From Enterobacteria phage vB_EcoM_IME540, in the sequence record MT150133.1: DNA of 64,000 nt. One strand, 5' to 3'. The notes under the pieces are model-generated. The model did not search any database, had not been told where the DNA came from, and saw only the letters and a program-made list of their open reading frames with translations. The translations under genes and the position numbers were made by a program. Shown here one piece after another: positions 46,406-47,665 of this stretch (positions within the stretch are counted from its first letter, which is position 1; every line of letters starts with the position of its first letter).

Positions 46406-46633
46406 TTATTTTCCTAACGAAATACGAGTAGGTTTTTTACCGAAATAGTCTTCATAAGAACCATCTAAACGACCTGCTTTAGACCGACAATATGAATCGT
46501 ACTTTTTGTAATAAGTCATCTCAGTATTATAACGCGGGTGTCTATCAGCCATAATAATACTTAACGGCCAACCTTTGGCATAATCGCGAAGACCATTTAT
46601 TTTACGAATGTATCTTTTCTTTAATTTTAGCAT
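46406..46633 (-). CDS. hypothetical basic protein (75 aa)
   Basis: coding-strand ORF. Confidence 0.45.
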   Translation of the reverse strand: MLKLKKRYIRKINGLRDYAKGWPLSIIMADRHPRYNTEMTYYKKYDSYCRSKAGRLDGSYEDYFGKKPTRISLGK

Positions 46634-46851
46634 GAGCTCGGATACCAGATTTTACCATCGGCCTGAGCAACGAAGGTGCGTCCAGCTTCTTCACCATAAC
46701 AAGAGCTATTCAGCCAATCTTCGAGACGAACTTCACCGTCATAATCGTCGAGCTCAACACCAAAACTTTGAGCAGAAGCCATATCTTTTACTTTCTTATA
46801 CAGTGCAGCCAGTTCAAGTGCGGCTTTTTCTAATTCATTAATATCAGTCAT
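46627..46851 (-). CDS. small paralog family member A (C-terminal WYPSSC)
   Basis: start trimmed to MTDINELEK; C-terminus ...GKIWYPSSC. Confidence 0.5.
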   Translation of the reverse strand: MTDINELEKAALELAALYKKVKDMASAQSFGVELDDYDGEVRLEDWLNSSCYGEEAGRTFVAQADGKIWYPSSC

Positions 46852-46861
46852 TTTTATCACC

Positions 46862-47074
46862 TTAGCAAGACATAGAGGATGTAAACCAGAAACCTTCACC
46901 ATCTGGGATACCGTAATCATCACGGGCCCATTCATAATCATCATATTCCGGATTCTTTGGAGAAATGTATTGTCCACGACCAGAAACATGGAACTCTTCA
47001 CCCGTTTCGTCAGCCACGGCCTGGCCTTTACGTACTAATTCGCGGATTTGTTTTTCAATTTCATCAATAGTCAT
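46862..47074 (-). CDS. small paralog family member B (C-terminal WFTSSMSC)
   Basis: 70 aa; N-terminal helix MTIDEIEKQIRELV; C-terminus GFWFTSSMSC. Confidence 0.55.
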   Translation of the reverse strand: MTIDEIEKQIRELVRKGQAVADETGEEFHVSGRGQYISPKNPEYDDYEWARDDYGIPDGEGFWFTSSMSC

Positions 47075-47083
47075 TTTATTTCC

Positions 47084-47365
47084 TTAACATTCAGAAGAAG
47101 AGGACACCCAACCGCCATTTTCTAGGCTGGTGGTGTAATCATGCTGGTTTACAATAGCATACTGGGCTTCACCGTATTCTTCCCAGTGGGCAAGGTCGGC
47201 TTTCAAGGCGCCAGGAGAATAATAGTCACCGCCCATACCGCGAGCAGGGTATATATTAAAATGAGTCTCATATTTGTTAGCAATTTCCTCGGCACGACGA
47301 ATAGCTTTATGGATATCATTTACTGCGTCAGCCAGCTCTTTATTTTTACGGTAATCATTCATCAT
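47084..47365 (-). CDS. small paralog family member C (C-terminal WVSSSSEC)
   Basis: 93 aa; C-terminus GGWVSSSSEC. Confidence 0.55.
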   Translation of the reverse strand: MMNDYRKNKELADAVNDIHKAIRRAEEIANKYETHFNIYPARGMGGDYYSPGALKADLAHWEEYGEAQYAIVNQHDYTTSLENGGWVSSSSEC

Positions 47366-47374
47366 AGCGTTTCC

Positions 47375-47665
47375 TTAGCACATTGCCGAAGAGGAGACCC
47401 AAGCACCAACTGTAACGACACCGTTTTCAACTTCACCGCCATTGTTTTCAATTTCATCTTTAAACCATTGGGAGCATTCATAACCGACAGGATAATATGT
47501 ACGGCCTGAACCATAACCACCGGTACTGAATTCAATACCATATTCATCTGCGATTTCTTCACATTTGGATTCGATGGTGCCTACTTTACCCAGCAGGTCA
47601 TAGATAGCCTTTTCTGCGGACAGCGCGCTGTTGTATTCAGGGATTTCAATTTCAATTTTATTCAT
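47375..47665 (-). CDS. small paralog family member D (C-terminal WVSSSAMC)
   Basis: 96 aa; C-terminus GAWVSSSAMC. Confidence 0.55.
   Translation of the reverse strand: MNKIEIEIPEYNSALSAEKAIYDLLGKVGTIESKCEEIADEYGIEFSTGGYGSGRTYYPVGYECSQWFKDEIENNGGEVENGVVTVGAWVSSSAMC

Follow-up and report, generated by a model that had tools for sequence, protein, structure and literature searches.

The window analyzed here is a stretch of 64,000 nucleotides from the T4-like coliphage vB_EcoM_IME540 (MT150133.1), a member of the genus Dhakavirus. On its minus strand, four small ORFs, denoted A to D, follow each other head to tail at distances of 9-10 nt, each preceded by a Shine-Dalgarno-like GGA/GGTGA sequence (Table 1). 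A first-pass annotation had described a tandem array of these ORFs; all four are present over the span that it gave, and the C-termini that it quoted are exact. It had also placed the array in an accessory region, and comparison with T4 bears this out: the lysozyme gene e and the nudix gene e.1 lie on one side of this accessory stretch, and e.3/e.6-like genes, e.8 and tRNA genes on the other. The array stretch is 95-96% identical to that of the phages PSD2002, LHE83, MX01, QL01 and WG01. In some close relatives an extra 65-aa gene (E type, ending WVSSSYEC) is inserted between B and C, so that the copy number of the array is polymorphic (four or five genes). The order D-C-(E)-B-A is maintained in several genera of T4-like phages, and the paralog subtypes are old. 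In the ORF list, A appears as a 124-aa form starting at GTG (46627-47001, minus strand) that overlaps B; this form was rejected, since relatives annotate instead the 74-aa ATG form, which has its own ribosome-binding site.

On the same strand, about 0.9 kb downstream of A, lies a gene for a 319-aa protein, hereafter the enzyme. Three small ORFs separate it from the array; they match PHROGs 7065, 9796 and 3723, none with a known function, and show dN/dS values of 0.02-0.07. For the one listed at 116 aa, relatives annotate a 109-aa product that begins at an internal start codon. The 79-aa ORF alone recurs outside the close relatives; the 11 loci with it are those that have an A-type gene. The three ORFs are uncertain members of the module formed by the array and the enzyme gene.

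Table 1. Features of the array locus in the window, from high to low coordinates
Feature	Position	Strand	Description
Candidate early promoter	49230-49258	-	sigma-70-like TTTACA-17-TATAAT, 11/12 consensus; consensus match only
e.3-like membrane protein gene	47662-48015	-	
Paralog D	47375-47665	-	96 aa; canonical member; motif YGSGRTYYP; C-terminus GAWVSSSAMC
Paralog C	47084-47365	-	93 aa; canonical member; motif ARGMGGDYYSPG; C-terminus GGWVSSSSEC
Paralog B	46862-47074	-	70 aa; short; Gly/Tyr motif degenerate; C-terminus GFWFTSSMSC
Paralog A	46627-46851	-	74 aa from ATG; divergent double-motif subtype without YGMGG; WLNSSC internal, WYPSSC terminal
Three small ORFs between array and enzyme gene	45763-46633	-	46406-46633 (75 aa), 46046-46396 (116 aa), 45763-46002 (79 aa)
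Enzyme gene	44784-45743	-	319 aa; Pfam DUF7277 + DUF7275; PHROG 2141
Gene for 78-aa acidic protein	42963-43199	-	MSIAIYIKSESCDSYLY...SWERDDE

Among orthologs from five Dhakaviruses, dN/dS is 0.08 for A, 0.21 for B, 0.22 for C and 0.14 for D; A-D are thus real genes under constraint. The same values rule out positive selection on A-D, and the earlier description of the paralogs as diversifying has to be given up in favor of purifying selection. The maximum of the neighborhood in these five genomes, a dN/dS of 0.39, belongs to the e.3-like membrane protein gene (neighbors, 0.02-0.22).

The paralogy that had been claimed for all four genes stands for B, C and D, whereas A is divergent and is linked to them through distant full-length homologs. 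Specifically, the pairs B-C, B-D and C-D score z = 4.8-8.0 in shuffle tests (C versus D, 6.9; B versus D, 8.0) and still z = 3.3-6.0 after removal of the last 10 residues, so that their similarity goes beyond composition. An independently built family HMM recognizes B, C and D at E = 1e-17 to 3e-24 (B, 1.2e-17; C, 3e-24) and A at E = 2, while the phrog_899 profile is matched by all four (A, 1.7e-9; B, 2.9e-14; C, 7.3e-20; D, 3e-22). In pairwise comparison with B-D, A yields no significant score (shuffle z <=2), and hhalign covers only its last 7 residues. Despite these weak pairwise and profile scores, the possibility that A is a chance look-alike is ruled out by full-length A-type homologs in distant, equivalent arrays, namely those of Phapecoctavirus Schickermooser (z = 15) and of locus L084 (z = 19), whose contig encodes the enzyme of Pseudomonas phage PspYZU05. 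A common W-N-S-S-C-Y-G-E segment joins these A-type homologs, in turn, to canonical members, for example P0149 (z = 9). Judged by these comparisons, B, C and D are clear paralogs, and A is an old, conserved subtype with two tail motifs (WLNSSC and WYPSSC) in which the central glycine motif has been lost.

The segments that the four proteins had been said to share fare unevenly. The N-terminal helix is found in every subtype, but the central motif, F-x-F...YG(M/S)GG-x-Y-Y-P, which reads YGSGRTYYP in D and RGMGGDYYSP in C, is degenerate in B (GRGQYISP) and missing from its usual place in A, where YGEEAGRTF follows the first tail motif. The tail of B, C and D has the canonical form W-x-S-S-S-x-x-C, and that of A the form W-x-x-S-S-C, present twice. 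All four proteins are acidic, with pI values of 4.1-5.0 and net charges of -6 to -11.5; their N-termini read, from A to D, MTDINE, MTIDEI, MMNDYR and MNKIEI.

An exhaustive profile search at E <=1e-3 yielded 342 cluster representatives of the family (50% identity), almost all of them 72-120 aa long, with the profile match extending through the final residue. The common layout comprises N-terminal helices, the motif A-E-x-I-A-D-x-x-G-x-x-F-x-F...Y-G-M-G-G-T-Y-Y-P, a variable, strongly acidic linker and a terminal G-x-W-x-S-S-S-x-x-C; the median pI is 4.5. The sole feature common to the subtypes A, B, C, D and E is the N-terminal helix together with the W..SS..C tail. The suggestion that the terminal Cys is a chemical site gains weight from its near-invariance: 165 of 176 family sequences end in Cys, half of the proteins have no other Cys, and of the 165 Cys-ended sequences 159 have W(-7), 159 have S(-4) and 159 have S(-3). 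This pattern fits a chemical role of the residue, as a nucleophile, ligand or modification site, better than a part in an internal disulfide. Furthermore, the tail motif recurs within the acidic linker, where 35 internal W-x-S-S motifs are observed against 1.5 expected from shuffling, and 11 internal copies of the full W..SS..C motif against 0.1; such repeats characterize motifs for modification or recognition and not structural elements.

The small protein is predicted to be a folded domain with an N-terminal helical hairpin and a small beta-sheet, the model confidence being 96 for the core and 72 for the tail, which fits the view that the tail is an exposed peptide. The predicted fold has no match in the PDB, and sequence searches with A-D in Pfam, NCBIfam, PADLOC and the PDB returned only coiled-coil noise on the N-terminal helix. 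No PADLOC family was hit by A-D at E-values up to 10, which is a partial test, as PADLOC covers defence systems and not anti-defence proteins. No match in these databases pointed to the putative role in host interaction or counter-defence that had been suggested for the family.

The 319-aa protein is predicted to be a MenT/ANT-like nucleotidyltransferase of the Pol-beta type with an intact catalytic motif. It carries the G-S...D-x-D...carboxylate signature of this class on a mixed alpha/beta fold, and 30 diverse homologs all share the residues G6, S7, D25, D27 and E69; in structure, the protein comes closest to the tRNA-modifying toxin MenT1 and then to MenT3 and MenT4. The C-terminal helical domain is very conserved, with the motifs SHRFKKN, YDHDSIHEA, GVYEExCVLALERSQIP and KVCTSITSGWFREYAWENY. 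A HEPN-like Rx4-6H motif considered in this domain was discarded: its His is not conserved, the window sequence there reads NNPFF, and the match to RNase L has an E-value of 0.28. The enzyme is widespread: clustering at 90% identity leaves about 1,900 representatives, and 733 phage records contain a homolog.

The small proteins and the enzyme are found together in either direction of search. Forty-four metagenomic phage loci retrieved via the small proteins (contigs of 3.6-389 kb) carry 1-6 tandem family copies per locus, and in 42 of them an enzyme homolog of about 300 aa follows just downstream in the same orientation; the remaining two (L021 and L027) stop short, L027 ending at the contig edge. 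Conversely, 70 of 80 loci retrieved via the enzyme have 1-6 HMM-detectable small members, nearly all upstream and on the same strand, and six of the other ten contain motif-only or A-type variants. The co-occurrence thus amounts to about 88-95% in both directions of the test; overall, both genes are present in 119 of 133 loci, and the pair is seen in 36 of 42 enzyme clusters (60% identity). Its carriers include T4-like phages, Phapecoctavirus (E. coli phage Schickermooser), Otagovirus (Pseudomonas phage phiPsa347), Menderavirus (Stenotrophomonas phage Mendera), Acinetobacter phage Berthold and jumbo-phage contigs of 350-390 kb. As no other neighbor gene recurs in more than 11 loci, which leaves no third conserved component, the pairing is not simple synteny. 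An apparent neighbor cluster of 24 loci was dismissed as apparently an antisense ORF inside the enzyme gene, judging from the coordinates of its longest member.

The module is essentially restricted to phages. A scan of prokaryotes with one genome per species (185,579 species) found it on only five MAG contigs; four of these extend upstream of the enzyme gene, and all four have small members next to it. In the vicinity of the shorter enzyme homologs of Gordonia, Streptomyces, Bacillus G and KVP40-like phages, no family member could be recognized, so the enzyme can exist without the small proteins. In T4, neither the family HMM nor the enzyme HMM finds a match within 1-50 kb and 62-76 kb. The small-protein family is already catalogued as PHROG 899, and the enzyme domains as DUF7275 and DUF7277. 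A literature search found no paper on phrog_899, RB69ORF139c, DUF7275/DUF7277 or the JS98 paralogs, nor a relevant one on phage MenT or anti-defence; the SegB paper does not appear to deal with the module. Taken together, these data suggest that the array and the enzyme gene constitute an undescribed two-part phage system.

Several further genes were noticed around the module. Homologs of the 78-aa acidic protein listed in Table 1 are found directly upstream of the array in six loci, four of which are jumbo-phage contigs of 355-371 kb; of the T4-like loci, L041 has a homolog immediately behind the enzyme gene and L022 one about 1.5 kb downstream of it. This protein may be a loosely linked third component. 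In Gordonia, Streptomyces and KVP40-like Vibrio phages, the shorter enzyme homolog is flanked by a different small protein family (L048:4454-4747, L049:4630-4968, L054:3705-4001) with the ending ...Y-x-K-x-T-G-Y-x-D-S...V-x-V-x-P...I-T-x-Y, which may be an alternative partner of the enzyme. In Bacillus phage G, gp204 (L050:3106-3459), a protein of 117 aa that combines an N-terminal helix with an extremely acidic tail ...EEETSSSW, is encoded directly upstream of the enzyme homolog and could be a remote analogue of the family minus the terminal Cys. Schickermooser and Vibrio phage phi-pp2 each have a SIR2-family gene at 2-3 kb downstream from the enzyme gene (L052:7200-8015, L054:6975-7640), and Acinetobacter phage Berthold has a putative ADP-ribosyltransferase gene just past it (L055:4853-5170); these may be coincidental neighbors with a part in NAD or protein modification. 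In GenBank, some homologs of the array proteins or the enzyme bear structural names ('tail completion protein', 'prohead assembly scaffold protein', 'major capsid protein'), which are very likely annotation errors, and in one case the name is 'putative antibiotic resistance protein'; the records with odd names are MK295203 / NC_055783 (vB_EcoM_005), Klebsiella phage vB_KpnM-VAC36 and OP558005.

As to the expression of the module, a candidate promoter lies upstream of the e.6-like gene and could drive the e.6-like gene, a 178-aa ORF, the e.3-like gene, D, C, B and A through the enzyme gene as one unit. No terminator-like site was found on the minus strand within 44500-49500, and the stretch 42520-50685 of this strand is free of T4-type late promoters (TATAAATA). 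Together with the sigma-70-like character of the candidate promoter, these two results make it likely that the array and the enzyme gene are co-transcribed early.

Given the near-obligate pairing, the likely role of the C-terminal motif shifts towards recognition or modification by the enzyme. We tentatively favor, at somewhat less than even probability, the possibility that the small proteins work with the downstream nucleotidyltransferase and that the tail is the element recognized or modified, because the tail is common to all subtypes, exposed, hydroxyl-rich and sometimes repeated, and because the fold class of the enzyme nucleotidylylates hydroxyls. The small acidic proteins and the DUF7277-DUF7275 enzyme would be expressed early from one transcription unit and would act together. 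The enzyme would recognize the conserved tail, along with the extra linker copies of some members, and would attach NMP to the hydroxyl of a Ser in the motif, with the Trp as an anchor for the tail and the terminal Cys as a helper in the reaction or the site of a subsequent one. By virtue of the variable bodies of the paralogs, the outcome would be several differently shaped, modified and very acidic proteins directed against host targets early in infection. For the tail itself, a docking or modification site of the enzyme is our best guess. There are precedents for such chemistry: MntA, a nucleotidyltransferase encoded next to its small partner HepT, oligo-AMPylates it on Tyr; PII receives uridylyl groups from GlnD; and the small acidic carrier proteins served by CitX/MdcG are loaded at a Ser. 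The interaction of the two proteins, the tail as the site of contact or modification, the chemistry, the timing and the target are inferred. In a bolder version, which we consider improbable, the pair would be a protein-modification system in which a portable W-S-S-S-x-x-C tag offers its Ser hydroxyls to accept a nucleotide or even to prime short nucleotide chains, and the resulting protein-nucleic-acid hybrids would be used early against nucleic-acid-sensing or tRNA-targeting defences of the host, with the Cys involved in catalysis or in a second covalent step.

Several observations speak against modification of the tail by the enzyme. The case for contact between the two proteins is an indirect one, from gene linkage and sequence; shorter enzyme homologs, as mentioned, occur without a detectable family member nearby; and modification of Ser alone leaves the invariance of Trp and Cys unexplained. 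In fact, the invariant Trp and the terminal Cys are left unexplained by every model. Moreover, the order of the genes, with the small one upstream and the MenT-like enzyme downstream, fits an antitoxin-like inhibitor equally well. The small proteins would then bind, restrain, time or re-target a MenT-like enzyme acting on RNA, for example on the 3' ends of host tRNA; the tail could be a plug or docking peptide, and the paralogs could be interchangeable specificity or inhibitor subunits. This reading, which seems to us rather unlikely, draws on the MenT toxins being the top structural matches of the enzyme, on the established MenAT/AbiE order, where the small or antitoxin gene is directly upstream, being mirrored in nearly all loci, and on the proximity of the module to phage tRNA genes in several phages; no resemblance of the small proteins to the MenA or AbiEi antitoxins was found. 

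The three unrelated small ORFs that part the array from the enzyme gene in the window also count against tail modification, and they fit the view that the small proteins function on their own, the linkage reflecting a common accessory island or common regulation and not a common mechanism. As acidic mimics of DNA or proteins, as sponges, or as oligomers with metal- or redox-active Cys, the small proteins would then counteract a host factor or a defence. We regard such independence as distinctly unlikely. A-D are indeed very acidic, small and probably early, like known phage mimics and sponges, and their copy number differs among close relatives, but the linkage to the enzyme persists in lineages where no other neighbor is conserved, strand and order are nearly invariant, the co-occurrence is high both ways, and the PADLOC comparison, which covers defence systems, produced no match to a known profile. 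It seems very improbable that the tail is processed or closed into a ring, that is, that the enzyme O-nucleotidylylates the Ser of S-x-x-C and that elimination and attack by the terminal Cys produce a lanthionine-like thioether, or else that the tail is cleaved or conjugated. In lanthipeptide biosynthesis, a Ser hydroxyl is activated before Cys is added, and the invariant S(-3)-x-x-C(0) spacing of the canonical members, the exactly C-terminal position of the Cys in the 165 sequences mentioned above and the repetition of the tail motif in the manner of a core peptide would suit a similar process. The A-type tail, though, cannot form the same ring, as its S-S-C has no spacer; no homolog of a cyclase, dehydratase or protease is conserved nearby; the proteins are predicted to be folded domains and not leader plus core peptides; and the proposal would be one by analogy entirely.

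Whichever way the pair works, its carriers include coliphages, Klebsiella, Acinetobacter, Aeromonas, Pseudomonas and jumbo phages, some of which serve phage therapy, and the fixed combination of a tagged, multi-copy small protein with a dedicated nucleotidyltransferase offers a concrete handle on a functionally blank block of phage genes. Should the enzyme prove to modify the tag, the module would represent a novel type of nucleotidylylation of viral proteins, one whose recognition tag is transferable; should the small proteins instead control a tRNA-modifying enzyme, it would be a phage-borne relative of the MenAT toxins for host takeover. Either outcome would be relevant to research on phage-host conflict and to enzymology.

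Among previously named phage genes, RB69ORF139c with RB69ORF134c, and ORF064c with ORF062c of Aeromonas phage 31, are true members and represent the identical gene pair. The N-termini of A-D seem unlike the capsid-targeting sequence of the T4 internal proteins. In comparison with the arrays of lanthipeptides and other RiPPs, the arrangement is reversed, with a variable body and a conserved tail in place of a conserved leader and a variable core, and there is no RiPP dehydratase or cyclase among the conserved neighbors of the module.

The likeness to MenAT/AbiE systems (MenT1, MenT3/TglT, MenT4, AbiEii) lies in the enzyme fold and the gene order, toxicity and neutralization being putative in the phage module. 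Unlike those systems, the module is phage-encoded and almost absent from bacterial genomes, its enzyme has an additional, highly conserved domain of about 190 aa (DUF7275), and the upstream partners are multi-copy and Cys-terminated, with a predicted fold that has no counterpart in the PDB. The HepT-MntA (HEPN-MNT type VII) pair follows the logic proposed here, in that a minimal nucleotidyltransferase is encoded beside a small protein that is (oligo)AMPylated on a side-chain hydroxyl. The small proteins of the phage module, however, have neither a HEPN fold nor an Rx4-6H motif, the acceptor of the putative modification would be Ser and not Tyr, and a single enzyme would have several substrates. 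The carrier proteins of citrate lyase and malonate decarboxylase are acidic, Ser-modified proteins of about 100 aa, and GlnD combines a transferase with a removing (HD) domain; in both GlnD-PII and CitX/MdcG, as proposed for the phage module, an enzyme of the nucleotidyltransferase class modifies a dedicated small protein.
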